DNA from: Desulfobacteraceae bacterium
GTDB lineage: Bacteria; Desulfobacterota; Desulfobacteria; Desulfobacterales; SURF-7
Reading direction: 5' to 3'
NCBI GenBank assembly: GCA_003599865.1
Contig: QZKS01000012.1
Location: 5,875-69,874, forward strand
Length of the DNA: 64,000 nt
Both the position numbers and the translations under genes were made by a program. The notes under the pieces are model-generated. The model had not been told where the DNA came from and made no database searches. It saw only the letters and a list, made by a program, of their open reading frames with translations. This document shows, one piece after another, positions 2,527-40,734 of the stretch. Each line of letters begins with the position of its first letter. The first letter of the stretch is position 1.

Positions 2527-4185
2527 CTAAGAATTCAAAATCTTGCGGGCACTTTCATCATTCACATCCGACACATGCGGAATACCTGTCTCTCTTGCCG
2601 TCTCCCGGTTTCCGGAAAAAATGTCCTGACGTGTAATCTGGTTCACGGAAAATTTTCTGGCACCGGCCAGAAGCTGCTGCAGGCCGCATGCCAGCTTGTC
2701 TGCCATTGTCCAGAATGCGATGGCGCCGTATGGGATATTTTTCATTTCGTCCTTTCCCACTTTCTTCTCGACGTCAAAATAAGACGCAAATATTTCTTTG
2801 GCTGTACTTCCAACACTTTGGACGGATTTTGGCAGCTCATTCCAGTTGCCATTAACTTCTGCTTTTCTGTCAGGATGAATTGCACCTTCAATGTTCGATC
2901 CGACGAAACCCGGAATCATGATCGCACGGCCCATGCAGATCAGTTTTGTGAACGGCGCGCCCAGAGCCAATGCTTTAAAAATATGATCTTCCAGAGCAAA
3001 CCCCCCGGCAAAAGACATATCCACTACGCGCTGTCCCTTTGCTGAAAGAATACCGGCATATTCATAGGCCTTTGAATGCAGATTAATGGAAGGCACACCC
3101 CAGCTCTGCATCATGTTCCATGGACTCATTCCCGTGCCGCCACCGGAACCGTCGATGGTCAGAAGATCCATTTTTGCATCTGTTGCAAATTTAATGGCCA
3201 TAGCCAGTTCTTCCATACCATAGGATCCTGTTTTTAGCGTAATTCTTGAGAATCCAAGGCCACGAAGATAGGTCACACTGCTCATAAAATCTTCCCGAAC
3301 CTGTGCGACCGTATCCAGGTTTGTTCCGCCGAGGCGGCTGTGCCGTGCAAAGGACTTGATCGAACCGTTTTTAAACGCTTCCTGAACTTCCGGAATCCTG
3401 GGATCAGGATCGACCACATAGCCGCGGTCTTTCAGAAATAAAGCATAATCAAGGCTGGTGACCTGAATTTCGCCCCCGATATCCTTGGCGCCCTGGCCCC
3501 ATTTCAGTTCAATGATCACCTTGTCTCCATATTTATCGGCAACAAATTCCGCGACTCCATTACGGGTATCCTCGACATTGAGCTGAACAATGATCGCGCC
3601 ATATCCGTCAAAATATCGAAGATAACCATTGATCCGCCTCTCCAGCTCGGGAGATTTTTTGATCTTTCCCTTTTTCTCCTTGCCGTCGGCAATCTCTGAT
3701 TCCCTGTCAACCCCGACAACATTCTCGCCGATGACCACCGGAATGCCGCATAAGGCCCCGCCGATGGCAAAGGAATCCCAATATTTTTGTGCAATAAAGG
3801 TTGATCCGAGGGCACCGGTCATCAGCGGAATGCGTACCTTTGTTTTTACCGTATTGCCAAATTCGGTGGCCAAATTGACGTTTGGGAAAATACAGTCATC
3901 CGGATCATTACTCATATCATGATGCAGACCGTGTGCGCCATATGCATATCCCTGAATACGAAGAGAATTATAGGAAACACCCACATGTGTTGTATTATTG
4001 GCACCGGCTGTTACCAGACCAAAACTTCTCGGATACAGAAGTTTTCGGCCAACCAGACTGGAAAGCCATGTTTCACACTTGCCCTGGCAATCTGCCCGGC
4101 ATAATGTACAAAGCCCTGATTCTGCTACATTAGCCCGATTTGTGGTACCGAGTACATCATTGTTCTTTGAAAATCTCATTTTCAT
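2527..4185 (-). CDS. Glutamate synthase-family FMN-binding protein (GltB domain-2-like, archaeal-type split GOGAT subunit)
   Basis: 552-aa ORF with an N-terminal Cys cluster CTLCRADCQGKCE, TIM-barrel FMN-domain motifs LMTGALGS and LTIDGSGGGTGMSPW, and an AAGGAGA RBS upstream of the ATG at 4185. Confidence 0.8.
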   Translation of the reverse strand: MKMRFSKNNDVLGTTNRANVAESGLCTLCRADCQGKCETWLSSLVGRKLLYPRSFGLVTAGANNTTHVGVSYNSLRIQGYAYGAHGLHHDMSNDPDDCIFPNVNLATEFGNTVKTKVRIPLMTGALGSTFIAQKYWDSFAIGGALCGIPVVIGENVVGVDRESEIADGKEKKGKIKKSPELERRINGYLRYFDGYGAIIVQLNVEDTRNGVAEFVADKYGDKVIIELKWGQGAKDIGGEIQVTSLDYALFLKDRGYVVDPDPRIPEVQEAFKNGSIKSFARHSRLGGTNLDTVAQVREDFMSSVTYLRGLGFSRITLKTGSYGMEELAMAIKFATDAKMDLLTIDGSGGGTGMSPWNMMQSWGVPSINLHSKAYEYAGILSAKGQRVVDMSFAGGFALEDHIFKALALGAPFTKLICMGRAIMIPGFVGSNIEGAIHPDRKAEVNGNWNELPKSVQSVGSTAKEIFASYFDVEKKVGKDEMKNIPYGAIAFWTMADKLACGLQQLLAGARKFSVNQITRQDIFSGNRETARETGIPHVSDVNDESARKILNS

Positions 4186-4250
4186 TCTCCTTGTCTTAAG
4201 TAATGATCCTCACCGGGGGTCAAAATGCCCCCAAATCTCCAAAAGCCCTG

Positions 4251-4291
4251 AACGCAAAAAGGCGCCTGTTCTTTCAGAACCAGACGCCTTT
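4251..4291 (-). terminator. Intrinsic terminator/attenuator in the leader of the GltB-like gene
   Basis: The minus strand reads AAAGGCGTCTGGTTC-TGAAA-GAACAGGCGCCTTTTTGCGTT, an imperfect ~13-bp stem plus a U-run. It lies ~200 nt downstream of the ANTAR gene stop and ~70 nt upstream of the 4185 start. Confidence 0.55.
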
Positions 4292-4365
4292 GTCTCTATC
4301 CTAAATTGTAAGCTCTTCGGCACGCCATTGTACCGTTTTTGAGCGGTGCTTATAAAAGCGGATTA

Positions 4366-4394
4366 AAATTATCTATACTGATAATAAATGTCAA
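4366..4394 (-). promoter_or_regulatory. Candidate sigma-70 promoter for the GltB-like gene
   Basis: The minus strand has TTGACA (4394-4389), then either GATAAT after a 15-nt spacer or TAATTT after a 17-nt spacer. The -10 element is weak. Confidence 0.3.
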
Positions 4395-4491
4395 GAAAGA
4401 AATGATAAAAAATTAAGTTTAGATAAATTCAGACCCAAAAATCAAACGGTCGGAAGGTACAGCAGATCCAAACAGAAAAGCCGATAACGGA

Positions 4492-5217
4492 TTATCCGTG
4501 AAACATCTCGTCGGAGAGCAGGATGGCTTCCGCCACACTTCTGATGGACTTGCGGGAGTCCATGCTGCGTTTTCGAATCCAGTGGAAGGCCTCATCAATT
4601 TTCATTCCACGGCGCTTTATCAAAATTTCCTTGGCGCGCTCAATGATCTTGCGCGTTTCCAGCTCTTCCTGAATCACTCTGGTTTTTACCATTAATTCCG
4701 TATTTAGGATGGCAACAGCCGCCTGGTTTGCAACTGCTGTCAGAAGATTGACCTCTGTTTCGGAAAATTCATAAGGGCTTGATGTAAAACAATTCAGCAC
4801 GCCAATCACTTTTTCATCTTTGAGTTTAAGGGGGACCCCGACCATGGATGCAAGACCCAGTTTTTTGGCCATTTCTTTTTCCTTAAACCGCTTATTTTTC
4901 AAAACATCCTTAATAACAAGAGGCTGTTTTCGCGTCACTACATCTCCCACTACCCCTTCATTCGTATCCAGAGAGCGATCTTTCACATACTCTGGAGCAA
5001 TCGCCTGTGTGGCTTTCAGACGAATTTTTGGCGGATTCTCATCTTCATCAATCAGCCATAGCGAACAGATCGTAACTCCCATGGCCTGGGCAGTAACCAT
5101 CACAACAAGCTTCAGGAGATCCTCCAGGTAAAGCTCCGAAGTAATGGCCTTGCTGATGTCGGTCAGAGCCTTGATATACTCATCATATGTTTTTGCATCC
5201 AGACGATCCATAAACAA
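4492..5217 (-). CDS. GAF + ANTAR domain RNA-binding antitermination regulator
   Basis: 241 aa. The N-terminal GAF-like region reads LEDLLKLVVMVTAQAMGVTICSLWLID. The C-terminal ANTAR signature reads IERAKEILIKRRGMKIDEAFHWIRKRSMDSRKSIRSVAEAIL. Confidence 0.85.
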   Translation of the reverse strand: MFMDRLDAKTYDEYIKALTDISKAITSELYLEDLLKLVVMVTAQAMGVTICSLWLIDEDENPPKIRLKATQAIAPEYVKDRSLDTNEGVVGDVVTRKQPLVIKDVLKNKRFKEKEMAKKLGLASMVGVPLKLKDEKVIGVLNCFTSSPYEFSETEVNLLTAVANQAAVAILNTELMVKTRVIQEELETRKIIERAKEILIKRRGMKIDEAFHWIRKRSMDSRKSIRSVAEAILLSDEMFHG

Positions 5218-5416
5218 ACCATGTAATTAAAATAACGATGTTATCATAGGAAACTGTTTTTTTGATAAAAGCTCGGATATTCCATTCAATCTTTTTTTCA
5301 TACCATATCATATAAAAAACGTTTCAGGGTGTTCTTTATAAAAATATTCACTCTTTTTCAATAGTTGACATGCCGGTTTCCAAAAAAGAACGGGAATCCA
5401 TGTCGCTTCTTTAACC

Positions 5417-5446
5417 TTGACATTAATTTATACTTAAAAATATAAT
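5417..5446 (+). promoter_or_regulatory. Sigma-70-type promoter upstream of the amidotransferase gene
   Basis: Consensus TTGACA (5417-5422), an 18-nt spacer, then consensus TATAAT (5441-5446), ~64 nt upstream of the ATG at 5510. Confidence 0.55.
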
Positions 5447-5509
5447 GAACCATTATTTTAAATGAATTTTAATTTCCGACATCCATACATATTTAAGGAG
5501 AAATACAAT

Positions 5510-6637
5510 ATGTGCCGCTTGCTTGCAATAACCTCTGACGATTTTATCTCGCCGGTTGTTGGTATAGAAGGGCTCAACGCCATGCACGAGGGGTATGACG
5601 GATCAGGAGTCGGTCTTCTGTTGCGGGATTTGGGCGGACCATTTGAAAATATGAAAGATTCTCCGATTTTATCCGGCATTTTCAGTGAATCCGGCCTGAA
5701 AAAGCTGGATAACTATATGCTGGACCTGGGGTTTACGACAAAGTATAAAATCTCCTTTAAAATACCCAAAAATCGTCCTGCCGGAATCCCCCAAAGAGAT
5801 ATTTATCTTGTCCGCGCCTATGACTATCCCAATGAATGGGAAAAATTCAACCGGAATCAACTGTATGACCAGCTGATGAATATCCGGCTTCAATTGAAAA
5901 AAATGGGTGAAGCGGAAAAAGATATGATTGTCTTCTCTTTCTGGCCCGATACCATCATGATCAAGGAGATCGGTGATCCCCTTGATGTCGCCGAATATCT
6001 TGAGCTGGACCGGAAAGACCTGAAGGCGCGTGTCATTATGGTTCAAGGCCGGCAGAACACGAACTACAGCATCGATCTATACTCCTGTCATCCATTTTTT
6101 CTACAGGGTTTTTCAACCATGACCAATGGTGAAAACACCGCCTTTATTACCAACAAGGAATTTCTATCTTCAAGGGGCTTTGCGGGCTATAACGGATACA
6201 TGTCCGATTCGGAAATCTTTACTCACATTCTTCACTATTCAGTGGTGAAACTCGGATTGGATCTCGAGGCTTACAAGCATATCATCACCCCGCTGACGGA
6301 CAGCATGCTGGAAACTCATCCGGATGCTGCCTTTTTGCGGCACCTGAAATATTCCTGCCGCCAGATGATTATCGACGGTCCCAATTGCGTTGTGGGATGC
6401 CTTCCGGACAACACCCTTTTCATGGTCCAGGATCGAAAAAAACTCCGGCCGGGAATTATCGGAGGGGACCCGGGGATGTATGTCCTTTCTTCCGAAACCT
6501 GCGGTCTGGATGCGGTGCTTCCCAACCGTGATAAAAGCAAGGATTTTCAGCCCATGCACATGGATACGGCAATTGTAGCGCCGGATCGAAAAAACATCCG
6601 TGTGGTGAAACAGACAGACCCTTTTCTGAAAAATTAA
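5510..6637 (+). CDS. Class-II (Ntn) glutamine amidotransferase, glutamate synthase GltB domain-1-like
   Basis: The track ORF starts at 5462, but Ntn amidotransferases need Met-Cys at the N-terminus. MCRLLAITS begins at 5510 and is preceded by an AAGGAG RBS. Downstream SGVGLLLRD and MVQGRQNTN fit GATase_2. Confidence 0.8.
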   Translation: MCRLLAITSDDFISPVVGIEGLNAMHEGYDGSGVGLLLRDLGGPFENMKDSPILSGIFSESGLKKLDNYMLDLGFTTKYKISFKIPKNRPAGIPQRDIYLVRAYDYPNEWEKFNRNQLYDQLMNIRLQLKKMGEAEKDMIVFSFWPDTIMIKEIGDPLDVAEYLELDRKDLKARVIMVQGRQNTNYSIDLYSCHPFFLQGFSTMTNGENTAFITNKEFLSSRGFAGYNGYMSDSEIFTHILHYSVVKLGLDLEAYKHIITPLTDSMLETHPDAAFLRHLKYSCRQMIIDGPNCVVGCLPDNTLFMVQDRKKLRPGIIGGDPGMYVLSSETCGLDAVLPNRDKSKDFQPMHMDTAIVAPDRKNIRVVKQTDPFLKN

Positions 6638-6650
6638 AACAGTCTCCGCT

Positions 6651-7610
6651 TCACAGATCGTGCGCCTTTCCGATCAATTCGGAAATCATGCATTTTGCTC
6701 GGGAAAGATAGGCCTGCACTCCCTGATGAATCTCTCTGAATACATCCGGATTTACAAACCAGGACGTCCCGATTCCTACAGCTGTTGCACCAGCCAGAAT
6801 ATACTCAACCACATCCTGCCAGCGGGAAATTCCGCCGATGCCGATGATCGGCACCTCCCCGGAACGGCATTCCGGTATTCTGCGAAAACAATCGTAAACC
6901 ATGAACAGACCGACCGGCTTGATTGCCGGTCCGGAAAGGCCCCCGATAATATTGCCAAGAAGAGGCTTCCGGGTTTGTATATCAATCGCCATGCCCCGGA
7001 CCGTATTGATCATGGACAGCACATCTGTTCCGCCCTGAATGGCAGCCCTGGCCGGAATGGTGATGTCAGTGACATTCGGGGTGAGCTTGGTGATCACCAG
7101 CATCCGGGAATCGATTCGCCCTTTCACCGTTCCGACAATCCGTTCCACCAGTTCCGGATCGGTACCAAATGCAGTGCCTCCTTTTTTAATGTTGGGACAG
7201 GACACATTGATTTCAAGACCGGTGATGATCTGAGCGGAATCATGATCACTCAAATAAGCGGCAAGATCGCCGAACCCCTCAATCGAGTCTGCTGAAATAT
7301 TGACAAACACCGGAAGATCAAAATTCAATAAGCGATGAATCTCCTGTTGAATGAAATATTTTACACCCTCATTCTGCAATCCAATGGAGTTGAGGATACC
7401 GGTTCTGGTTTCTGCAATCCTGAATTCCCTATTTCCTTCTTTGGGCTCCAGGGTGACTCCCTTTGTCACAAAAGCCCCCAGGCTGCTTAAAATCCGGCCG
7501 CTTTTTTCCAGAATCTCGATTTCATTGGCATGCCCGGAAGTCCCGGATGCCGTCATCAAAGGAGATTTCATGGTGATATTTTTGATCCGTACCTGCATTG
7601 CATGTTTCAT
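6651..7610 (-). CDS. pyrD: Dihydroorotate dehydrogenase, class 1B catalytic subunit
   Basis: MKSPLMTASGTSG, NSIGLQNEGV, INVSCPNIKKGG and GIGGISRWQDVVEYILAGATAVGIGT are PyrD 1B hallmarks. Its start overlaps the pyrK stop by 4 nt. Confidence 0.9.
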   Translation of the reverse strand: MKHAMQVRIKNITMKSPLMTASGTSGHANEIEILEKSGRILSSLGAFVTKGVTLEPKEGNREFRIAETRTGILNSIGLQNEGVKYFIQQEIHRLLNFDLPVFVNISADSIEGFGDLAAYLSDHDSAQIITGLEINVSCPNIKKGGTAFGTDPELVERIVGTVKGRIDSRMLVITKLTPNVTDITIPARAAIQGGTDVLSMINTVRGMAIDIQTRKPLLGNIIGGLSGPAIKPVGLFMVYDCFRRIPECRSGEVPIIGIGGISRWQDVVEYILAGATAVGIGTSWFVNPDVFREIHQGVQAYLSRAKCMISELIGKAHDL

Positions 7611-10600
7611 AATTTTTCCCAGTCGATTTCATTTGCGTCAAAAACAGGTCCATCCACACAAACACGGGAGTACTGTTTTGCATGGTTTTTCTGCGTACGG
7701 CATACACAGGACATGCATACGCCGATTCCACATCCCATCCGTTTTTCCAGAAGCACTTTCATGGGAATTTCAAATTCGGAAGCGATTTTTTGAAGCGCTA
7801 TCAGCATGGGTTTGGGGCCGCATGCGACGATCAGAATTTTTTTCGCAGCTTTCTTTTTTTCCAGGCAGGATCGGTATTGTTCCGTGACCAGGCCGCAATG
7901 GTAATTTTCCTTTTTTATTTTCTCACTTAATTCTTCATTCTCCGTGTGTTCCCGGGACAGATAGAGTTCATCGGGTTCCAGGCCGATCCTGGCAAGCTCT
8001 TCAATATACACATAGGCCTTGCCGGATTCCTCTGAAAAACTTCTACCATACGGTGCTTCTGCAAGTGAAGCAATCCGGTCAATTCCAATAAACGCCTTCA
8101 CCTTAAAGGCATAGAATTTCAAGGCCTGACCAAAAAAGACCAGCGGCGCCATGCCGACTCCGCCGCCGACCAGATGCACCTCATCAATTCCCTGAGACCG
8201 CCACCCCGGAATATGGGTATATTTTCCCAACGGTCCCAGAACCCGGATCCGATCCCCTTTTTTTAACCCGGTCATTTCCCGGGTTCCGATCCCGCCTTCC
8301 ATCACCTTGTAAAAAATCTCAAATTTATGGGGAAAGACCGTATGGGTGATACCGGCCAGAACGGTGGGAAGGGATAATGTATCATGATAACCCCATTCAA
8401 AATACTGGTAATAGGCCCGCTGTACGCCAAAAGGCCTTTTTAAGTAGGATTTGGGGGACAGATCCGGCCCCTGCCTTTTCCCTGCTGCAAAAAGATTTTT
8501 ATATCGGATCTGATCCATTTTTTTCCGCAGCTCATCAGGCAGCGGGTCGACCATAATGAACTGACCGGGACCGATATTTTTCATATCCGAAGTCTGAAAG
8601 GCAAGCTTGTAGTGCATGGGGCTTTCTTCCGGCCCGACCGGCTTGTTTTGGATCACTTCCGCCTTGAAGTGCTTCACTGTTTGTTTTGGAACCAGGATCG
8701 GCTGATTGAAAAAGCGTTCCGCCGAAACCCCGAACCTGTCCGGTTTGATCCGGACGGCTTTTCGTACAAGATCCGGAAAGCAGATAAAAAATCCCCTGGG
8801 CCAGTTATCTGCCCATTCAACCTGCCGGCATGCATTCATTTCCAACCGGTCGGTAAAAACCAGATAGCAGATGCTCTCAAAAAGCGATTTATCCTGCCGA
8901 ACAATATTCCCTGCAACCTGTTTCCGTTGTTTCACTCTTTTGGAATCATAAAAACAAAAGAAAATTTTTTTCCCATCCTTGTTTTCGGCGACCATGTCGA
9001 CATCCGGAATTTCATTGTCAGCATTTTCCCATGTCTTTGAATCCGGATATCCCATGATTTCAGCCATGACCTCAGATTGACGCAATTGATCCTTTGCCGG
9101 GAGAACCATCCGGTAGTGATCTTCCGAAAGGATGATGGACAGCAACATCATACACAGAAGGTGATACGCCCTCTCATTTTCAATTGAATCGGAAACAATT
9201 GTTCTCCGTTCCTGCTTTGTGAGCCGGGAGTAGTGTTCTTTCAGGTTCTCCCGGATCATCGGCAGTATATCATCATGGATTTTCTCCGCACTCTTTCCGT
9301 TCTTCAGAAAAGCCGATGCTCGTATGTACAAAAAAAGCTCATGAATATCGCTGTCTGAGGGAGAAAAGGCCGCAACATTCTTCCTTTTGCGGTTGCGAAC
9401 GATAGCGTAGTATCGCTCGGAAAGACGTGAAAAAGCACCCGGAAGAGACCTGATCTCCTGCAATTGACATCCGATTCCCGATAGGGTTTCCTGTAAAATT
9501 TCGGTTGATTCAGGTGCCGAGGATCGATGGTAATAAATGATCCGGCTGGAAGAAGCCGTCTTCTGAATCACCCTTTCCAGTAATTCGGCAAATCGTTCCA
9601 TCTGTCCCTCGTTGTGCCATAAACCGCTTCCCCAGAGAAGATCTCGATCATACTTCATGGACAACCAGGAGGCCTGCAAACCGGACATGCATTGACGAAC
9701 ATCGGAACCATCACCCGGAGGGTCCATAAAAACATGGGTAATGTTTCGTTTCTGCGGAATGGATAATGACAGACAATCCGAATGGCTGATGTATAAATGG
9801 TCATCGGATTTTTCAAAATCATCCATGGAATCGGAAATCCGTAGAAAAGACAACCGGGAATTGATTTCTTTTTTACAGTTCAAAAAAAGATGGAACTGGT
9901 GTTCAAAGGCCGACCAGACGTTGACTTCCGTTGAAGGTGCGGACGCTTTCGGAATCCCCGGAGTCGAAAGGTTGGACAATACATTGACCGCGCTTCCGGA
10001 TATGCCTTTTGTCATGCATCGCAACAGGACGGCAACAAAAACCGCCTGGAATGCCTCGCGGTTTCTGCCTGCCGGAAGTGACTGGATCGCATGAAACAGA
10101 TCTGCCAGAGACGCCAGATTCCGACCGGTAAAGAGGTCTTTCATATAAAAGGCATCAATACTTCCGGTTCCCGGAATTTTTTTTGCCGGAAACCATTGTC
10201 CGGGCGCCGTATTGGACACCAGAACCTGTCGTTTTGCCTCTGAACCGGTTAATGGCGTTTTCCCTCTGAATCCGCAGACATTACAGGTAACAGTTACCGC
10301 ATCCGGATGTATTTCCCCTTTCGTTCCTTTCCATAGCAATTGCGCAAACGGAACTTGCCTGCGGCAGCCGGCGCACAAAATAGTGTATCGTCCCTGAATT
10401 TGATCCGCCACCGCCTCGGAAATGTTTTTCCAATCTTCCCGCAGGCTGAACAAACCCATTGGCTGAAGCAGAACCCGGGTCAGCAGAACAGCAACCGGGT
10501 CAAGATCACCGGCAACAGCACCGGCTCCCTTTTGCAGTGCGACAAGCAGCGGAGTTCCTGCACCGCAAAAAGGATCCAGTACAAGGTCGCCTTTTCTTAC

Positions 10601-10693
10601 ATCTGAAAAAAGTGCAGCCAGGACATCCGGCTGCATTTGATCCCCATATGGAAGGGAATAGGCTGTTTGATTCAATAAATTTATTTTCCCCAT
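7607..10693 (-). CDS. pyrK: PyrK-like electron-transfer subunit (C-terminal ~350 aa, about nt 7607-8680) fused to a ~670-aa N-terminal extension with Zn-ribbon adenine-methyltransferase-like motifs
   Basis: Uninterrupted 1,028-codon ORF. C-terminus: KRPFGVQRA, HLVGGGVGMAPL, ACGPKPM and the 2Fe-2S motif MGCGIGVCMSCVC...CVDGPVF. N-terminus: VLDPFCGAGT (nt 10553-10582) then GDLDPVAVLL, CxxC pairs CAGC and CNVC, and FMDPPG (DPPG at nt 9713-9724) where DPPY is expected. Confidence 0.8.
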   Translation of the reverse strand: MGKINLLNQTAYSLPYGDQMQPDVLAALFSDVRKGDLVLDPFCGAGTPLLVALQKGAGAVAGDLDPVAVLLTRVLLQPMGLFSLREDWKNISEAVADQIQGRYTILCAGCRRQVPFAQLLWKGTKGEIHPDAVTVTCNVCGFRGKTPLTGSEAKRQVLVSNTAPGQWFPAKKIPGTGSIDAFYMKDLFTGRNLASLADLFHAIQSLPAGRNREAFQAVFVAVLLRCMTKGISGSAVNVLSNLSTPGIPKASAPSTEVNVWSAFEHQFHLFLNCKKEINSRLSFLRISDSMDDFEKSDDHLYISHSDCLSLSIPQKRNITHVFMDPPGDGSDVRQCMSGLQASWLSMKYDRDLLWGSGLWHNEGQMERFAELLERVIQKTASSSRIIYYHRSSAPESTEILQETLSGIGCQLQEIRSLPGAFSRLSERYYAIVRNRKRKNVAAFSPSDSDIHELFLYIRASAFLKNGKSAEKIHDDILPMIRENLKEHYSRLTKQERRTIVSDSIENERAYHLLCMMLLSIILSEDHYRMVLPAKDQLRQSEVMAEIMGYPDSKTWENADNEIPDVDMVAENKDGKKIFFCFYDSKRVKQRKQVAGNIVRQDKSLFESICYLVFTDRLEMNACRQVEWADNWPRGFFICFPDLVRKAVRIKPDRFGVSAERFFNQPILVPKQTVKHFKAEVIQNKPVGPEESPMHYKLAFQTSDMKNIGPGQFIMVDPLPDELRKKMDQIRYKNLFAAGKRQGPDLSPKSYLKRPFGVQRAYYQYFEWGYHDTLSLPTVLAGITHTVFPHKFEIFYKVMEGGIGTREMTGLKKGDRIRVLGPLGKYTHIPGWRSQGIDEVHLVGGGVGMAPLVFFGQALKFYAFKVKAFIGIDRIASLAEAPYGRSFSEESGKAYVYIEELARIGLEPDELYLSREHTENEELSEKIKKENYHCGLVTEQYRSCLEKKKAAKKILIVACGPKPMLIALQKIASEFEIPMKVLLEKRMGCGIGVCMSCVCRTQKNHAKQYSRVCVDGPVFDANEIDWEKL

Positions 10694-10896
10694 GGGCTGC
10701 CCAATAAAAAATCGGTTTCCGCCTGATCATTCACGATAATACGGATGTACCATATTTGAATTCTGCACACCAGACGACACTCCTGTCATGTCTTTGTGGG
10801 AACGTATCATGAATCAATATTTCCAATAAATCAACCGTATGTTGGCGAAATTCCGATCATGCATTGATAATATGTTGAATCCCGGCAGCAACCTGC

Positions 10897-10947
10897 AAAA
10901 AAAACACCTTCCAGATTGCATCTGATAATAAGATGGTCCGGAAGGTG
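10897..10947 (-). terminator. Intrinsic terminator closing the small-ORF transcription unit
   Basis: The minus strand reads CACCTTCCGGA-(21-nt loop)-TCTGGAAGGTG followed by TTTTTTTT, an 11-bp stem including one G-U pair. Confidence 0.6.
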
Positions 10948-10996
10948 CGGGCATATTTGATAGGGGGAAACAAATTTTCCAATCCCTGGAAATGAT

Positions 10997-11089
10997 CTAC
11001 AGCTTACAGAATTCCCCGGCCGGAGCGTTATGGGAACATTTCGTCAGCAATATGCTCAATACAATCAATGCAATTGTTAATCCGATCAT
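10997..11089 (-). CDS. Candidate 30-aa hydrophobic small protein (MIGLTIALIVLSILLTKCSHNAPAGEFCKL)
   Basis: Below the ORF-track cutoff and found by manual translation. A strong RBS GAGAGGAGG lies 5-6 nt upstream of the ATG at 11089, and there is one predicted TM helix. No homolog recognised. Confidence 0.3.
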   Translation of the reverse strand: MIGLTIALIVLSILLTKCSHNAPAGEFCKL

Positions 11090-11115
11090 AACGACCTCCT
11101 CTCATGTATGGGTGT

Positions 11116-11145
11116 GGACGGCTCCGATCAGGAGCCGTCCTTTTT
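11116..11145 (+). terminator. Plus-strand intrinsic terminator with no plus-strand gene upstream (possible end of a cis-antisense sRNA)
   Basis: GGACGGCTCC-GATCA-GGAGCCGTCC followed by TTTTT. This is a perfect 10-bp GC-rich stem, and only the plus-strand orientation has the U-run. Confidence 0.6.
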
Positions 11146-11164
11146 GACGTATCGGGAGAGAGAG

Positions 11165-11311
11165 TTATCCTGCCACGTCGATACCAAGATCACAACCAAG
11201 GTTGGGATCCGGGCTGTCACACTCAAAATTGTTTGACCGTGTATCTACATGACCGTCCTCTCTCTCTTTTTCTCTTTCAATATAATCCTGAATATTATCT
11301 TTAGTAGCCAT
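11165..11311 (-). CDS. Candidate 48-aa acidic small protein (MATKDNIQDYIEREKEREDGHVDTRSNNFECDSPDPNLGCDLGIDVAG)
   Basis: Below the track cutoff and found by manual translation. An AGGAGG RBS lies 6 nt upstream of the ATG at 11311, and the stop is TAA at 11165-11167. No homolog recognised. Confidence 0.45.
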   Translation of the reverse strand: MATKDNIQDYIEREKEREDGHVDTRSNNFECDSPDPNLGCDLGIDVAG

Positions 11312-11565
11312 GATAAGCCTCCTTTTTTTGGATGTCAGATGTTTATCACATCTTCTTGACCCACAATATCGTCACTATTTTTCACCCTGCAACCCGAAAC
11401 AAACTGTAGGGCATTGGTAGCGCGAAGCTACCATCAAAAGTACAAATAATTGAAGTTATATGTTTTTTTCTATTATTGTTTTTAGAAAACAGCCGGGATC
11501 AGAAGCAGCTTGATTACAAATTTTTACAGAAGCTATTGATGGGTAACGCAGAAAATCTTTAGGAA

Positions 11566-11641
11566 TGGCGCGCCCGGTAGGATTCGAACCTACGATGTCC
11601 GGCTCCGGAGGCCGACGCCCTATCCCCTGGGCCACGGGCGC
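11566..11641 (-). tRNA. tRNA-Arg (anticodon CCG), CCA encoded
   Basis: The reverse complement GCGCCCGTGGCCCAGGGGATAGGGCGTCGGCCTCCGGAGCCGGACATCGTAGGTTCGAATCCTACCGGGCGCGCCA folds as a cloverleaf: 7-bp acceptor, anticodon loop CTCCGGA, T-loop GGTTCGAATCC. Confidence 0.9.
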
Positions 11642-11702
11642 ATTGTTAAAATTTGGTCACAAAATAGAATAACACTTCCGATAAGTCAAGCCGAAAGACC
11701 GT

Positions 11703-13004
11703 TTATACAATTCCTCGGGATTCAAAAAATGCTCTTGCCTCGCCAACCACATACAACGATCCGGAAATACAGATAACCTCATCCTTTGGTACGGTTTTCA
11801 ATGCATGCTGAACAGCCTCTCCCACATCATTTACGATCTGTACATCCGATATATATTTTTCCGCAACAGGCTTCATCATCAGCGGATCAAGAGCGCGATC
11901 GATCTTGGAACGGGTAAGGATCACCCGGGTGCAATGGGGAAGAAGATTTCCAAGCATGGCTTCATAGGACTTGTCACCCAGGATACCGGCAACCAGGGTG
12001 ATTTTCCGTTCCGACAATTCTTCTTCCATATATCTTGACAGATTCTCGACGGCAGACAGGTTATGAGCCCCGTCCAGAATCACCAGCGGAGAATCCATAA
12101 TTTTTTCCAGACGGCCCGGCCATTTTGTTGTCAGGAGGCCTTTTCGGATGGTATCCACTGGAATGGCAACGGAAGGGTGTTTTCCATACCCCATCTGCAG
12201 CACTTCACAAGCAGAAAGTGCAATCGCGGCATTTTCAATCTGGTGCCTGCCCTGAAGACTTGTCCGAAGATTCTCCCATGCCTCATAAATCCCATGATAT
12301 GTGAATCTGTTTCGTCCGGTTTCTTCTGCAGTAAAATCCATGCCCAGTCTGTAAATCGGCGCAGACCGTTCATCTGCCAGATTCTGCAACACCGCAAAAA
12401 CATTTTCCTGCGATACACCGGTAACCACCGGGGTCCCATTCTTGATGATGCCGCCTTTTTCTGCAGCGATCTTTTCCAGCGTGTCACCAAGATACATCTG
12501 ATGTTCCAGGGAGATATTGGAAATCACGGAAACGGCAGGCTTCAGCACATTGGTTGAATCCATTCGGCCGCCCATTCCGGTCTCGATAATTGCCCAGTCA
12601 ATATCTTTATGTCCAAAATGATAAAAAGCCATGGCCGTTGTGTACTCAAAAAAAGTCGGTTCACGGTCGCCATAACCGACTTTCTTTACCGCATTGTAAG
12701 CCTCCAGAACCTCCTGATCGGTAATTTCACGGTGATTGATTTTTATTCGCTCGTTGAATCGAACCAGGTGCGGGGAGGTATACAAACCAACATTATAACC
12801 CGCTTCTCTCAGTATTGTAGAAAGGTAAGATGCAATAGATCCTTTTCCGTTGGTTCCGGCGATATGGACGGAAGCAAACCGGTCCTGGGGATTCCCCAAC
12901 TCCCTGAGAATGGCTTCCGTGGTCTCAAGGCCAAGGATAATGCCAAACCGCCGTAATCCATACATCTCGGCAAGGCATTTCTGAAACTCCGTATTGTCAT
13001 TCAT
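11703..13004 (-). CDS. folC: Bifunctional folylpolyglutamate synthase / dihydrofolate synthase
   Basis: The P-loop HIAGTNGKGS, YTSPHLVRFNERI and the Mur-ligase layout identify it; 433 aa. Confidence 0.9.
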   Translation of the reverse strand: MNDNTEFQKCLAEMYGLRRFGIILGLETTEAILRELGNPQDRFASVHIAGTNGKGSIASYLSTILREAGYNVGLYTSPHLVRFNERIKINHREITDQEVLEAYNAVKKVGYGDREPTFFEYTTAMAFYHFGHKDIDWAIIETGMGGRMDSTNVLKPAVSVISNISLEHQMYLGDTLEKIAAEKGGIIKNGTPVVTGVSQENVFAVLQNLADERSAPIYRLGMDFTAEETGRNRFTYHGIYEAWENLRTSLQGRHQIENAAIALSACEVLQMGYGKHPSVAIPVDTIRKGLLTTKWPGRLEKIMDSPLVILDGAHNLSAVENLSRYMEEELSERKITLVAGILGDKSYEAMLGNLLPHCTRVILTRSKIDRALDPLMMKPVAEKYISDVQIVNDVGEAVQHALKTVPKDEVICISGSLYVVGEARAFFESRGIV

Positions 13005-13014
13005 AGCGCAATAG

Positions 13015-13056
13015 AAAAACCCGGCAGGGGAAAAATGCCCATTGCCGGGTTTGTTT
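13015..13056 (-). terminator. Hairpin terminator after rpsU
   Basis: ACCCGGCA...TGCCGGGT stem flanked by an A-run and a T-run (AAAAACCCGGCA...TGCCGGGTTTGTTT), between rpsU and folC. Confidence 0.45.
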
Positions 13057-13076
13057 AATGTTATAAAAACGGGCGG

Positions 13077-13289
13077 TTACTTAGCTTTTCGAAATCGGCT
13101 TCTGGAAGCGGCTATGCGTTGCCGTCTCAAGGCTTCTCTTGACTTGCGACGTCGATATTCACTCGGTTTTTCATAACTTTTTTTGAGCTTTAATCGTTTA
13201 AAAAGACCATCATTCTGAATCTTCTTTTTTAAAATCCGCATTGCTTTTTCCAAGTCGTTGTCAAGAACTTTGACTTCAATCTCCTTCAA
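13077..13289 (-). CDS. rpsU: 30S ribosomal protein S21
   Basis: 70-aa basic protein with LEKAMRILKKKIQNDGLFKRLKLKKSYEKPSEYRRRK, typical of S21. Confidence 0.9.
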   Translation of the reverse strand: MKEIEVKVLDNDLEKAMRILKKKIQNDGLFKRLKLKKSYEKPSEYRRRKSREALRRQRIAASRSRFRKAK

Positions 13290-13464
13290 ATTCCTCGCCC
13301 CTTTCTTCCATCAGTTCACTTGATGATGGTTATTTAAATCAAAATAGAACTCCATCTTTTACTGTAAAAAAAAAACCTTTGCAACAGAATTTTTTAAACA
13401 CCCGGCTCATCCGGAAATAACATGAATTAAAAATTTTCCGGAGGAACGGAACCGCCCGATGCAA

Positions 13465-14139
13465 TTACAATTTGGAAATCAGCTCGGCTGTAACATCTTT
13501 TACACTCGGTTTTCCGTCCAGTTCGATATACCTCATCTTACCCTCTTTCTCAGCAACCTTTTTGAAGTAGTAGGCAGAAGCCAGGGTCCCGGTTTTCGTA
13601 TCATAATAAATGGAATGGCGTTTGTTGATCGCATCCTCATCCTGGTCATCCGCTCTTGTAGAGAGACTACCGCCACAGACCCGGCACTTGTCTCCATTCG
13701 GTTTAATGGCATCAATAAAAATATTGTTTGGATGGTTATTGTCATTCACACAAAGGCGGCGTCCCATAATTCTGTTTTTGGCTATCTCTCTATCCAGAAT
13801 AATCTCCACAACGATATCCAGTCCTATGCCTGCCTTTTTCAGAGACTCATCCAACTTTTCCGCCTGGACCTTGTTCCGGGGAAATCCATCCAGCAGCCAT
13901 CCGTTTTTGCAGTCACTTTGTTTCAGTCGATCCAGAATCATGGGAATGGTGATTTCATCGGGAACCAGATCCCCCTTGTCAATATAGGCCTTTGCCTTTG
14001 CTCCCAATTCGGTTCCACCTTTGATATTTTCACGGAATATTGCACCGGACTCGATATGGGGAAGCTTGTATCTTTCCTTTACGATTGCCCCCTGGGTTCC
14101 CTTGCCACTGCCATTTGGTCCAAAAAATAGAATGTTCAT
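13465..14139 (-). CDS. adk: Adenylate kinase (long form with Cys-containing lid)
   Basis: The internal start MNILFFGPNGSGKGTQ at 14139 has an AAGGAGA RBS; the track ORF extends to 14283 with no support. LLDGFPRN and the lid CVNDNNH...CRVCGG are present. Confidence 0.9.
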   Translation of the reverse strand: MNILFFGPNGSGKGTQGAIVKERYKLPHIESGAIFRENIKGGTELGAKAKAYIDKGDLVPDEITIPMILDRLKQSDCKNGWLLDGFPRNKVQAEKLDESLKKAGIGLDIVVEIILDREIAKNRIMGRRLCVNDNNHPNNIFIDAIKPNGDKCRVCGGSLSTRADDQDEDAINKRHSIYYDTKTGTLASAYYFKKVAEKEGKMRYIELDGKPSVKDVTAELISKL

Positions 14140-24074: not shown

Positions 24075-25169
24075 ATGAGTTATTTTTTTTCATTTATTAT
24101 TGTTTTGGGGGTGTTGATTTTTGTCCATGAACTGGGGCATTTTCTGGTCGCACGGTTCTTCGGCGTTGGTGTCGAGAAATTTTCCCTTGGTTTTGGTCCG
24201 AAAATTTTCGGCAAAAAAATCGGCATCACCGATTACCGGATATCGGCCATCCCTCTTGGCGGATATGTCAAAATGATCGGCGAGGAACCGGATGCCGAGC
24301 TTGACCCCAAAGACATCCCCCTTTCTTTTACGCATAAACATGTCCTGAAACGAATCTGCATTGTCGCAGCAGGCCCCTTGTTTAATTTTCTGCTGGCCAT
24401 CGTTATCTTCTTCGGCTTTTTCCAGATCTACGGTACCCATACCCTAAAGCCCATAGTGGGTAAGGTTCAGGAGGAATCCCCTGCGGAAAAAAGCGGGCTT
24501 CAACAAGGGGATCTGATCTTTGCCATCAACAATGAAAATGTCTCCACCTGGGAGGAAATGGCGGAACGGATCGGGCAGAGCAATGGGGGAATCCTGGCGA
24601 TTTCCATCAAACGCGGTGATGAGATCCGGACCTTTACGGTTGAACCGGTTTTAAAAGCGGATAAAAATCTGTTCGGAGAAGAAATCGAACGGTATATCGT
24701 CGGAATCACCGCGTCCGGTGAGGTGTTTTCCAGAAAACTGAATCCGATCCAGGCTTTTTCAGAAAGCCTTTCCCATACCTACAAAGTCACAGTCCTCATG
24801 TTCGTCGGAATCGGCAAGCTGATTCAGGGTTCGATTTCCGCAGACAACCTCGGCGGACCGATCATGATCGCACAGATGGCCGGTGACCAGGCAAAGGAAG
24901 GTTTTGAGAATCTTTTATATTTTATCGCCTTTATCAGTATCAATCTGGCCATTCTCAATTTTCTGCCGATCCCGGTACTGGATGGCGGACATCTTCTGTT
25001 TTTCTTCATTGAAGCGGTCCGGGGACGTCCGGTCAGCATCCGGGTCCGGGAGATTGCGCAGCAGGGCGGAATGTTTGTGTTGCTTTTGCTCATGATATTT
25101 GTTTTCTATAATGACGTGATGCGATACAACGTAATGAATTACATCGGTAATGCGTTGAACTTCTTTTAA
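24075..25169 (+). CDS. rseP: RIP site-2 metalloprotease RseP
   Basis: HELGHF zinc motif, a central PDZ-like segment, and the C-terminal NLAILNFLPIPVLDGG motif. Confidence 0.9.
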   Translation: MSYFFSFIIVLGVLIFVHELGHFLVARFFGVGVEKFSLGFGPKIFGKKIGITDYRISAIPLGGYVKMIGEEPDAELDPKDIPLSFTHKHVLKRICIVAAGPLFNFLLAIVIFFGFFQIYGTHTLKPIVGKVQEESPAEKSGLQQGDLIFAINNENVSTWEEMAERIGQSNGGILAISIKRGDEIRTFTVEPVLKADKNLFGEEIERYIVGITASGEVFSRKLNPIQAFSESLSHTYKVTVLMFVGIGKLIQGSISADNLGGPIMIAQMAGDQAKEGFENLLYFIAFISINLAILNFLPIPVLDGGHLLFFFIEAVRGRPVSIRVREIAQQGGMFVLLLLMIFVFYNDVMRYNVMNYIGNALNFF

Positions 25170-28100
25170 TGGAACGAGTCAAACCTATGCCAAACCAACT
25201 TGAAATCACACTGAAGCCGGATCTGGCGGATGCGGAAGGTCAAAAGATCTGTCAAAAGGCAAGAGACTATTTTGGTTTTGAACTGACATCGGTTCGAACC
25301 GTCCATGTCATTACCATCGATGCGCAACTGACCCCGGATCAGCTCGCAGCCGTTCAATCGGAAATATTCACCAACCCGGTCAGCCAGATATCTTCCTATT
25401 CCCCGCTTTCCATTGATTTCGACTGGACCATCTGGGTCGGCTTCCGGCCGGGTGTCCGGGATAACCCCGGAAGCACGGCTGTCGAAGCCATGGAAGACCA
25501 GCTCCGGGTCAAACTCGGACCGGATGAGGCGGTGTATACCTCCAGACGGTATTGTATCCAGGCGCCCCATCTCACCTATGAAGATGTGGATAAAATTGCC
25601 GGTGAGCTTCTGGCAAACGATATCATCCAGCAGTGGCGGATTATCGCAAAAAAGGACTGGGACCCGGCCATCGGAACCGGAATCATCATTCCCAGGGTTC
25701 AGCTGGAGCATGTTCCCACCGTCACCACCATTCCCATTGACAGTGACCGGACCCTTCAACGGATCAGCGTGGAACGGAATCTTGCCCTGAATCCCAATGA
25801 TATTCCCACCATCCGATCCTATTTTCTGAATCCGGAAGTCCGTTCACAGCGGGCCGAGGTCGGACTTTCCGACCCCACCGATATCGAACTGGAATACATC
25901 TCCCAGGCCAGAAGCGATCATTGCAACCATAATACCTTCAGGGGGTGCTTCCATTATACGGATATGGAGACCGGGAAAAAAGAAGTGGTCGACAATCTCT
26001 TCAAGACCTGTATTGAGGCCCCTACTCTTTCGTTGAAAGAGAAAAAACCATGGGTGGTTTCCGTATTGTGGGACAACGCCGGTGCCGGACAATTTGATTC
26101 CGATCATTATTATGTCATTACCGGGGAAACCCACAACTCTCCATCCAACATGGAAGCCTATGGCGGCGCCATTACCGGCATTGTCGGCGTTTACCGCGAT
26201 CCCCTGGGGACCGGAAAGGGTTCCCGGCTCATCATGGGAAGCTACGGATATTGTGTGGGACACCGGGATTATCACGGAGAATTGAAACCGCGCCTTCACC
26301 CGAGGCGGCTTCTGGACGGCGTCATCGAAGGGGTAAAGGACGGGGGCAACAAAAGCGGCATTCCCACAACCTTCGGCCAGGTGCTGTTCCATGACGGCTA
26401 TATGGGCAAATGCCTGGTCTTTGTCACGGCCCTGGGGATCATGCCTGCAACGGTAAAAGGCAAGCCGGCGGAACAGAAAACAACCTCTCCGGGTGAACTG
26501 ATCGTCATGTGCGGAGGCCGGGTCGGAAAAGACGGTATTCATGGCGTGACCGCATCATCGGAAACCTTTTCCGCAAACACACCGGCCGGTCATGTTCAGA
26601 TCGGCGACCCGTATACCCAGAAAAAAATGCATGATTTCCTTCTGGAAGCACGGGATGAAGGCCTGATTCCCTTTATTACCGATAACGGCGGCGGGGGGTT
26701 GTCTTCTTCTGTCGGAGAATCCGCAGAGGGCGCCGGAGGTTGCCGTGTGCAACTGGAGAAGGTTCCCCTGAAATATGAAGGTCTGGACCAATGGGAAATC
26801 TGGATTTCCGAATCCCAGGAAAGAATGACCGTTGCCGTCAAACCGGAACATCTGGACCGTTTCATGGCCCTGTCCCGGAAACATGCGGTGGAAAGTACCG
26901 TGATCGGCAACTATACGGATTCCGGCAGACTTCATATCACCTACAATGACAAAACCTGTGCCTGCATCGACCTGAATCTCATGTCCTCGGGATTCCCTCA
27001 ATGGCAGTTTGAAGCCCAATGGTTTTCACCAAAAGCCCGCGGCCTTGCAGAACCCGTGATCGGAGAACCCCGGGATTACAATTCTCTTCTTGCAGATATC
27101 CTGGAAAGGCCCAATATCTGCTCCAAGGAGTGGATCACCAGACAGTATGATCACGAGGTGCAGGGCAGCAGCGTCGTCAAACCGCTGGTGGGCGCGGAAA
27201 GAGATATGAACAGCGATGCCTCCGTGATCCGGCCGGTTCTCCATTCGGAAAAAGGCCTTGCTTTTGCCCAGAGCCTCCTGCCGTCCTACTCCGCCATAGA
27301 CGCATACCATATGACCGGCTGCACCATCGATGAAGCGGTCAGAAGGCTCATAGCCGTGGGCGCCGACCCGGAGCAGATCGGCGGCGTGGACAATTTCTGC
27401 TGGCCGGATATCCAGTATCACCCGAACAAAAACCCGGACGGAAAATTCAAGGCAGCCCAGCTTGTCCGTTCCTGCAAGGCGCTGAAAGAGACCTGTCTTG
27501 CCTATGGCATTCCGCTGCTGTCCGGAAAAGACAGCATGTATGTGGACGGTCATCTGACCGGCCCGTATGGCGAAACCCGAAAGGTATCCGCACTTCCCAC
27601 CATGCAGTTTTCCGCCACCAGCATCGTGACGGATATCCAGAACTGCGTGACCATGGATGTCAAAATTCCGGGTGACCTGATTTACATCCTGGGAATCACA
27701 AAAGATGAACTGGGCGCATCGGAATACTATGAACATTTTGGGTATGTGGGCTCCCATGTCCCGAATATCTTTCCGGAACGGTTTTTTCCCGTATACATAG
27801 CCCTGAACCGGGGGATAACCCGGAACATCATTGCATCGGCTCACGGAATCTACCGGGGAGGTCTTGCGGTGCACCTTGCCATGAAAGCCATGGGCGGAAA
27901 TCTCGGGATGGAAATCAACCTGTCCAAGGTCCTGTCGGAAGGTGTGGACCGGAACGACACCCTTTTGTTCTCCGAATCCGCCGGACGACTGATCGTAACC
28001 ATTGATCCGAAAAATCGGCAGGCCTTTGAGAAACTGTTTCAGGATCTGCCCGCTGCTATGATCGGAACGGTTACCGATACCGGAAAACTTGTCATCAACG

Positions 28101-40689: not shown

Positions 40690-40734
40690 GTTTTTGCAAT
40701 ACGGATGACAACGGTCAATACCGGAGGTATGACA

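Follow-up and report, generated by a model that had tools for sequence, protein, structure and literature searches.

We analysed a 64,000-nt stretch of contig QZKS01000012.1 from a Desulfobacteraceae bacterium (hereafter the window, whose coordinates are used throughout), in which a minus-strand gene joins a methyltransferase (MTase)-like region to PyrK, the electron-transfer subunit of dihydroorotate dehydrogenase (DHODH), and overlaps the likewise minus-strand pyrD. PyrK is generally regarded as a small protein of ~260 aa. Here, a single open reading frame (ORF) is made of three parts: MTase-like sequence at residues 1-436, a middle domain at residues ~447-650 and a PyrK module at residues 672-1028. 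The features of this fusion and of pyrD are listed below, where SAM stands for S-adenosylmethionine.

7607-10693, minus strand: whole fusion ORF of 1,028 aa (MTase-like region, middle domain, PyrK), with an ATG start and uninterrupted
9386-10693, minus strand: residues 1-436, amino-methyltransferase domain related to PF01555 but circularly permuted, with degenerate catalytic motifs in the window clade
10628-10660, minus strand: YSLPYGDQMQP, residues 12-22, a decayed RSHxYWGRKP motif ('HPTxKP'-like, preceding motif I)
10553-10582, minus strand: VLDPFCGAGT, residues 38-47, motif I SAM-binding glycine loop, intact
10481-10510, minus strand: GDLDPVAVLL, residues 62-71, motif II region with conserved acidic D63, intact
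10274-10375, minus strand: CAGC...CNVC, residues 107-140, zinc-ribbon insertion
9713-9730, minus strand: FMDPPG, residues 322-327, motif IV without its aromatic residue (FLDPPY in the family)
9125-9355, minus strand: residues 447-523, five-helix bundle in an AlphaFold2 (AF2) model, the fastest-evolving part
8744-9115, minus strand: residues 527-650, alpha/beta domain with weak PD-(D/E)xK-like fold matches, R623 and WPRGFF conserved
7610-8680, minus strand: residues 672-1028, PyrK module with FNR-like FAD/NAD domains and a C-terminal 2Fe-2S domain
8426-8437, minus strand: RPFG, residues 753-756, FAD-binding motif, with R, P and F invariant
8144-8167, minus strand: GGGVGMAP, residues 843-850, nucleotide-binding motif, invariant
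7658-7732, minus strand: 2Fe-2S ligands C988, C993, C996 and C1012, invariant in 18 members
6651-7610, minus strand: pyrD, class 1B DHODH catalytic subunit (PF01180, DHO_dh, E 6e-66)

A first-pass annotation made from the letters of the sequence had described an uninterrupted 1,028-codon ORF that ends in a complete PyrK module and overlaps pyrD by ATGA, and the window sequence bears this out. The 3′ end of the fusion reads GAA AAA TTA TGA, and this TGA is shared with the pyrD ATG at 7610. pyrD has a second in-frame ATG at 7598 (MKHAMQV...), and the ATGA overlap applies to the first ATG only. The motifs quoted for the MTase-like region are all present (VLDPFCGAGT at residues 38-47, GDLDPVAVLL at 62-71, CAGC at 107-110, CNVC at 137-140 and FMDPPG at 322-327), as are those quoted for PyrK (RPFGV at 753-757, GGGVGMAP at 843-850 and CGIGVCMSC at 988-996, together with C1012).

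The fusion is maintained in relatives. Below, P-numbers denote proteins or protein clusters and L-numbers denote related genomic loci that we compared with the window. Same-clade copies were recovered from five assemblies of different samples. Searching with residues 1-666 gave four of them, with identities over the N-terminal 666 aa of 93% (P0001), 79% (P0002) and 47% (P0003 and P0004), and a genome scan gave the fifth, the L003 ORF (46%), in a Desulfosudis oleivorans metagenome-assembled genome (MAG). P0001, P0002 and P0003 contain the whole fusion (1011-1028 aa), whereas P0004 is a partial copy that ends at a contig end. The same-clade alignment is collinear across both domain junctions. 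Synonymous divergence (dS) between the window and L001/L003 exceeds 1.2, yet no copy has a stop or a frameshift across the 690 N-terminal codons. The fusion is not an assembly artefact, because the same architecture with conserved junctions is found in independent assemblies and in ~30 distant protein clusters. With the frame kept in both same-clade and distant homologues, the MTase-like region is genuinely fused to a complete PyrK.

The PyrK module was recognized by its 2Fe-2S domain (PF10418, DHODB_Fe-S_bind, 61.2 bits against a 23.9 cut-off) and by structure: the top solved-structure match of residues 680-1028 is Lactococcus lactis PyrK (1EP1_B, E 3e-14, in two stretches). Pfam FAD_binding_6 and NAD_binding_1 fall below threshold in the window copy. 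L. lactis PyrK (1EP1/1EP2/1EP3, chain B) has the same layout, an FNR-like FAD/NAD module followed by a Cx4Cx2C...C 2Fe-2S domain, and its class 1B PyrD partner is likewise encoded adjacently. The window protein differs from it in having ~670 extra N-terminal residues and three family-specific insertions within the PyrK module, of about 22, 25 and 40 aa. The ratio of nonsynonymous to synonymous change (omega) in PyrK is 0.08-0.15 over clade comparisons.

The partner gene is equally well supported, as pyrD passes the NCBIfam DHODH equivalog NF005574 (341 bits, cut-off 269), and a faint Dus-like similarity was also seen in its product. A survey of pyrD adjacency had been proposed in the first-pass annotation, and we found pyrD directly downstream of the fusion or long pyrK in every related locus examined (15/15). 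The fusion ORF and pyrD occur together in the same-clade loci L001, L002, L003 and L083 and in the distant loci L004, L005 and L084-L089. Other neighbours vary among the distant loci, leaving the fusion gene and pyrD as the constant unit. In the window, the neighbours are folC, adk, rho, tRNA-Arg, a GAF-ANTAR regulator and glutamate-synthase-like genes, which make up a housekeeping setting and not a defence island; PADLOC returned only weak, motif-I-level MTase_II matches and no defence-system context. These neighbours share 85-93% identity with their L001/L003 counterparts, compared with 37-53% for the N-terminal region of the fusion. The match of the neighbours marks the window as coming from a relative of Desulfosudis (Desulfosudaceae, Thermodesulfobacteriota).

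The methyltransferase-like and middle domains

In a profile search, residues 1-436 matched stand-alone MTases with DPPY or DPPH motifs at E 1e-84 to 1e-37. The window copy itself scores 17.8 bits against Pfam N6_N4_Mtase (PF01555), below the 26.7 cut-off, and the MTase homology predicted for the N-terminus was instead recovered through members of its family, of which 13 of 18 match PF01555 at E<=0.01 (best 4.9e-10) and 11 of 18 match Pfam MethyltransfD12. When the family profile was searched against PDB sequences, M.MboIIA, CcrM, M.RsrI and DpnA aligned with it in a circular permutation: the N-terminal 'KP + DPFCGxG' of the query pairs with the C-termini of these MTases, and DPPY pairs with the N-terminus of M.MboIIA. 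Across the family, the consensus runs RSHxYWGRKP, DPFCGGG, a CxxC...CxxC zinc ribbon, FTGRNL, SSRGW, EKNVWxxFE and FLDPPY. D40, P41 and F42 of motif I are at least 90% conserved and the D-P-P of motif IV is invariant; in an alignment of 18 sequences, three of the four zinc-ribbon cysteines (C107, C110, C140) do not vary, and conservation of the fourth, C137, is at least 90%. The family thus shares a motif X-like 'H...KP', DPFxGxG and DPPY with beta-class MTases (PF01555; M.MboIIA 1G60, CcrM 6PBD, M.RsrI 1EG2). It differs from them in being permuted, with motifs X and I first and motif IV ~280 residues later, and in its inserted zinc ribbon, and the window copy differs further in having no motif IV aromatic and in scoring under the Pfam cut-off. 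An AF2 run on residues 1-688 from a 3-sequence alignment gave a pLDDT of 35 and was unusable.

The domain had earlier been likened to the COG1743 type of zinc-ribbon adenine methylase. Membership of DUF1156/COG1743 was not supported: Pfam DUF1156 (accession presumably PF06634) matched none of the 18 members, and NCBIfam NF042963 scored 16.6 bits against a cut-off of 1000. The DUF1156/COG1743 methylases, which are anti-phage associated (NF042963), do resemble the window protein in placing motif I before motif IV and show a weak motif I similarity (E 1.6e-3); the genomic context in the window, in contrast, is not a defence island. Taken together, the profile matches indicate that the N-terminus is homologous to PF01555-type DNA MTases as a permuted relative, yet by its motifs it does not warrant annotation as an MTase.

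The motif states of the window clade differ from those of most of the family. Most MTase-bearing members keep HxYWGRKP, DPFCGGG, SSRGW and DPPY together, with DPPY in 15 of the 21 full-length members of the family alignment. The window, P0001-P0004 and L003 have a SLPYGDQMQP-type sequence for SHxYWGRKP, LSNLS for SSRGW and DPPG for DPPY, so that both the 'H...KP' motif and the aromatic or imidazole residue of motif IV are missing. What these copies retain is DPFCG(A/S)G, D63, FTGRNL, EVNVW and the four zinc cysteines; in the window, the SAM-binding elements are DPFCGAG at residues 40-46 and the acidic D63. Separate decay was seen in P0006 (DPFCREA, in which the glycine loop is lost), P0034 (DPPG), P0013 (DPPC) and P0077 (DPPR), and P0006 (loci L088/L089) is the sister lineage of the window clade. 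The degenerate catalytic motif noted at first pass is therefore real in the window but is not a property of the fusion, as most members keep DPPY and the three motifs co-conserved with it. Motif loss is a state of the window clade and of a few other lineages.

Rates of change follow the motifs. MTase identity divided by PyrK identity averages 0.90 among 16 intact members (120 pairs), and falls to 0.65-0.68 in pairs with a degenerate member. We calculated omega by the Nei-Gojobori method between the window and same-clade loci. In the comparisons with L083 and L002, the MTase region has an omega of 0.45-0.47 and the middle region one of 0.24-0.29; the values for PyrK and PyrD are 0.08-0.14 and 0.06-0.11. 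Within the MTase region, residues 21-104 (motifs I-III) have an omega of 0.10-0.28 over clade comparisons; against L001/L003, the deepest of these, they are 73% identical with an omega of 0.10-0.13, compared with 76% and 0.13 for PyrK. The motif-IV half (residues 301-436) is only 39-42% identical to L001/L003, with an omega of 0.36-0.56. From this unevenness we infer that selection no longer acts on the part that binds the base and carries out catalysis, but still acts on the SAM-binding half. With its catalytic motif degenerate, the domain is best read as non-catalytic, as had been suggested at first pass. The accompanying suggestion that a ligand-binding part survives gains some support from the SAM-binding half (21-104), which within the clade is constrained like PyrK.

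The ~240 aa between the two recognizable halves had been described as matching nothing. This held for sequence methods, since neither Pfam scans nor profile searches against PDB sequences matched the middle region, but the segment proved to be a widespread N-terminal domain of a long-PyrK family, with a fold that appears nuclease-like. An AF2 model built from 25 family sequences (pLDDT 81, pTM 0.77) places a helix bundle first, then an alpha/beta domain, and ends in the initial strands of the PyrK barrel. The bundle (residues 447-523) is 19-24% identical to L001/L003 and contains a 28-aa indel. Foldseek with this model gave no match at E<=1e-3; the tops of both match lists were mostly PD-(D/E)xK proteins, with weak scores (best E 6e-3, TM 0.2-0.3). 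These included EcoO109I, Can2, NucS/EndoMS, PspGI, EcoT38I and Card1, alongside phage 'restriction endonuclease' models, bunyaviral L and Rpb5. The strand order of the alpha/beta core in the model appears to match that of PD-(D/E)xK nucleases (EcoO109I 1WTD, NucS 2VLD, Can2 8Q44, PspGI 3BM3). Unlike these enzymes, the middle domain has no conserved acidic residue or lysine on the second and third strands where D...(D/E)xK would lie, and only F579, R623 and F635 are invariant. The model is thus suggestive of an inactive nuclease-like fold.

The long-PyrK family and its relatives

An exhaustive search with a profile of the N-terminal region yielded 8,966 relatives (E<=1e-3). Approximately 25 cluster representatives of 1,015-1,065 aa match the whole profile, and all of them end in the PyrK cysteine motif. 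More distant fusions have 1,058-1,169 aa, and pyrD lies downstream in all that we looked up (L084/85, L086, L087, L088/89, L004 and L005). A genome scan of GTDB species representatives gave at least 3 full-length fusions among the matches listed. Intact fusions such as P0008, P0009, P0010 and the L005 ORF of a Desulfobulbia MAG resemble the window protein in their three parts, zinc ribbon and pyrD linkage; unlike it, they keep HxYWGRKP, DPFCGGG, SSRGW and DPPY, and their MTase is conserved about as well as PyrK. We consider that members with an intact MTase are probably bifunctional.

Searching with residues 668-1028 opened up a larger group. The 120 top relatives are 38-65% identical, mostly over 96-100% of the query including the insertions; a few are fragments covering 69-87%. 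When their domain content was scored with hidden Markov models made from the three regions of the fusion, 104 of the 120 proved to have the middle domain and PyrK without the MTase, and the majority are 515-620 aa long. A word-indexed search with the middle-domain profile had returned one fragment, and the wide spread of the domain emerged through the PyrK-domain search. These long PyrK proteins (P0264, P0220 and P0165, for example) share the PyrK insertions, the middle domain and a downstream pyrD with the window protein; unlike it, they have no MTase, and in many the middle domain starts without its first helices. In P0264 (607 aa, on a 6.2-Mb contig), pyrD is next and there is no MTase gene or remnant upstream, and P0220 (521 aa) has the same arrangement (loci L092/L093). 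Where these proteins are named, NCBI calls them 'hypothetical protein', and JGI calls other members 'dihydroorotate dehydrogenase electron transfer subunit'.

One long pyrK, P0192, lies within a pyrR-pyrB-pyrC-pyrK-pyrD-carA-carB cluster in a frameshift-ridden assembly. Because a related long pyrK lies in a pyr operon, gene order assigns the family to de novo pyrimidine synthesis. In this assembly (L094 5552-7233), the middle domain of the long pyrK is spread across three frames, and fragmentation also affects pyrC, carA and carB.

We placed 140 complete PyrK domains in a neighbour-joining tree, which has no support values. In this tree, 31 leaves bear an MTase and are scattered over 23 separate pure clades (21 Fitch changes), and the sister group of the window clade consists of 515-525-aa forms without an MTase, among them a Desulfosarcina MAG protein. 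Among intact members, MTase and PyrK identities correlate (Mantel r = 0.71, reached by 0 of 5000 permutations). This suggests one ancient fusion followed by many losses of the N-terminal MTase as the simplest reading; an ancestral MTase is favoured because some twenty independent acquisitions at the same position are implausible. If the MTase was indeed lost repeatedly where pyrK-pyrD remained, it would not be needed for DHODH function. Short forms of 410-470 aa were set aside as being, at least in part, frameshift artefacts.

Outside the fusions, the nearest homologues are 490-580-aa zinc-ribbon MTases (P0005, P0017 and P0024, and Bathyarchaeia and other loci, L007-L017), with E down to 1e-84 over residues 16-450. 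They have the motif order of the fusion, but carry DPPH(S/G)D or DPPYGG and have no PyrK. P0017 and P0024 are followed, at 4-5-bp spacing, by a conserved ~340-366-aa protein with an IDFF...PFDLK nuclease-type motif, and the two genes look like type II restriction-modification pairs. The downstream protein, found directly after these stand-alone DPPH MTases at L090 7534-8634 (366 aa) and L091 2094-3119 (at least 342 aa, at a contig end), belongs to no Pfam family; the two copies are 56% identical and, judged by the motif, probably represent an undescribed PD-(D/E)xK-type restriction endonuclease. An origin of the fusion from a simple methylase-endonuclease gene pair is not supported, as hhalign of the middle domain against this putative endonuclease shows no relation.

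Surroundings of the fusion gene

Several further observations concern the DNA around the fusion and pyrD. The following additional features were recorded.

11165-11311, minus strand: small ORF of 48 aa, acidic, with a strong Shine-Dalgarno site
10997-11089, minus strand: small ORF of 30 aa, hydrophobic, with a strong Shine-Dalgarno site
5462-6637, plus strand: 391-aa ORF starting MCRLLAITS, Ntn-amidotransferase-like, with no Pfam or NCBIfam match
25169-28183, plus strand: 1,004-aa protein with PurL-type FGAM synthase domains (FGAR-AT linker, AIRS, AIRS_C) and a weak N-terminal PurS match
40705-46410, plus strand: 1,901-aa protein with PilY1 beta-propeller and Golvesin_C domains

The two small ORFs lie in an 870-bp gap (10694-11565, minus strand) that separates tRNA-Arg(CCG) from the start of the fusion. 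In L002 and L083, too, a gene of 48 aa is annotated upstream of the fusion, equal in length to 11165-11311. The gap further contains a GC-rich hairpin at 11116-11140. Nothing in the gap matches Rfam: in a scan of 4000-13500 the tRNA was the sole match, and there was no leader RNA ahead of the fusion.

At the 5′ end of pyrD, gene callers chose the second ATG in L002 and L083. Downstream of pyrD, on the same strand, are the GAF-ANTAR regulator and a 550-aa Glu_synthase-domain protein (window 2527-5217). This synteny recurs in L001, L003, L083 and L088, i.e. in all Desulfosudis-like relatives, and extends to the P0006 locus although the PyrK domain of P0006 is just 65% identical; it may be functional, tying nitrogen to pyrimidine metabolism. 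Approximately 905 bp of the 391-aa ORF (especially 5740-6644) is missing from L083 despite 96%-identical flanks, and the region is present in L002 and absent from L001/L003. The 391-aa ORF is a recent presence/absence polymorphism adjoining pyrD.

Interpretation and wider significance

We think it likely, with some reserve, that the window gene encodes a functioning electron-transfer subunit of DHODH-B that carries a catalytically dead MTase relic, the SAM-binding half of which still has a role. In this scheme, the C-terminal 357 residues would bind FAD and a 2Fe-2S cluster, and together with the translationally coupled PyrD the PyrK module would serve de novo pyrimidine synthesis by transferring electrons from dihydroorotate to NAD+ (the general properties of PyrK are described in PMC8097209). 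The window lineage would then represent an intermediate state, in which the MTase is still translated and folded but the residues for holding and methylating a target base have gone; its frame would be kept open, and its fold maintained, as it is translated ahead of the essential PyrK module. Since the SAM-binding half is under strong purifying selection, it may retain some non-catalytic role, whether in fold stability or solubility, as an interface, or in binding SAM or S-adenosylhomocysteine (SAH).

Several points weigh against this reading. The best NCBIfam PyrK equivalog, NF000799, scores 103 bits where the cut-off is 314, and the FAD-binding motif is RPFG where that of L. lactis PyrK is RPIS. 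The sub-threshold NCBIfam scores may be put down to the insertions together with sequence divergence; the module is PyrK by predicted structure and by context, though not by curated equivalog score. An omega of ~0.45 across the MTase region is well below 1, and so the 'relic' is not drifting freely. MTase inactivity is read from motifs, and the stand-alone DPPH relatives mean that variants without tyrosine could be possible. The nuclease-like fold proposed for the middle domain stands on weak Foldseek matches, and the number of MTase losses is uncertain and can be taken only as a rough count, given a support-free tree and some short forms that are artefacts of gene calling or frameshifts.

Next in standing, though at rather long odds, is an exapted sensor, an idea already raised in the first-pass annotation: the dead MTase might bind SAM, SAH, an adenine nucleotide or nucleic acid and tune the activity or localisation of DHODH-B, which would link pyrimidine synthesis to the methyl cycle or to DNA status. 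In its favour are the preserved motif I, D63, FTGRNL and zinc-ribbon cysteines, the PyrK-like constraint on residues 21-104 and an omega below 1 across the whole N-terminal region. However, the MTase has apparently been dropped many times where pyrK-pyrD stays, so that DHODH would not generally need it; the sister lineage P0006 lost the glycine loop instead; and the constraint on residues 21-104 could just reflect the folding or solubility of a domain translated before PyrK. A more elaborate form of this idea, which we regard as more speculative still, begins with an ancestral bifunctional long PyrK, in which a vertically inherited, orphan-type amino-methyltransferase acting on DNA or another substrate was joined to the NAD-linked DHODH and coupled methylation to pyrimidine supply or redox state, the window lineage having discarded the catalytic half and kept the SAM-binding half as an allosteric SAM/SAH sensor of DHODH-B.

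It is improbable that the window protein is still an active bifunctional enzyme, with DPPG as a tolerated variant of motif IV and DNA or another substrate being methylated. The intact SAM-binding motifs and the invariant D-P-P would permit this, as would the non-canonical DPPH of near stand-alone relatives, if those are active. Yet HxYWGRKP, SSRGW and the motif IV aromatic, which are otherwise co-conserved, have been lost together, and the motif-IV half is evolving 3-4x faster than in intact members. Glycine also lacks the stacking and hydrogen-bonding side chain needed in (D/N/S)PP(Y/F/W) amino-methyltransferases, which counts against activity.

We find it very doubtful that the functional product is a short PyrK made from an internal start, with the upstream 440-690 codons a dying remnant. 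The 515-620-aa relatives show that shorter forms are viable, and a weak purine-rich stretch precedes M693, the internal start suggested at first pass. But the frame has stayed open in five sequences through a dS of more than 1.2, with an omega of 0.1-0.55, and no internal methionine is conserved where the short forms start. M693 lies beyond the first conserved beta-strand of the PyrK barrel (FKAEVxxNxPVG), and V673 has no upstream Shine-Dalgarno sequence. A scan for promoters and terminators gave counts not clearly above those in shuffled controls and no convincing internal promoter.

There is only a slim chance that the pair is not a DHODH at all, but a PyrK-like and a PyrD-like protein that act with the MTase in a system for modifying or reducing nucleic acids or nucleobases. 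A PyrK part under the equivalog cut-offs and the faint Dus-like similarity of PyrD would fit such a system; against it stand a PyrD that passes the DHODH equivalog model and has an omega of 0.06-0.11, a related long pyrK in a complete pyr operon, and the housekeeping contexts. Least credible of all is an assembly or sequencing artefact in which a frameshift or chimera joined an MTase gene to pyrK, for which we found no supporting point and against which stand the identical architectures and junctions described above.

On balance, the copy in the window is most probably a conventional DHODH subunit with a relic attached. A literature search found no description of a PyrK-methyltransferase fusion or of long PyrK. 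Automatic annotation under-calls both halves, as PyrK falls below the equivalog cut-offs and the MTase below the Pfam cut-off. What emerges is a broad bacterial family in which PyrK carries one or two extra domains that appear to derive from restriction-modification-type proteins, and whose intact members predict an MTase joined to a core redox enzyme of nucleotide biosynthesis, an unexpected link. The family would also contain a decay series, from an intact MTase, through a dead MTase with its SAM-binding half, to complete loss, and as such may offer a natural case of the decay of a domain that shares its reading frame with an essential domain lying after it.

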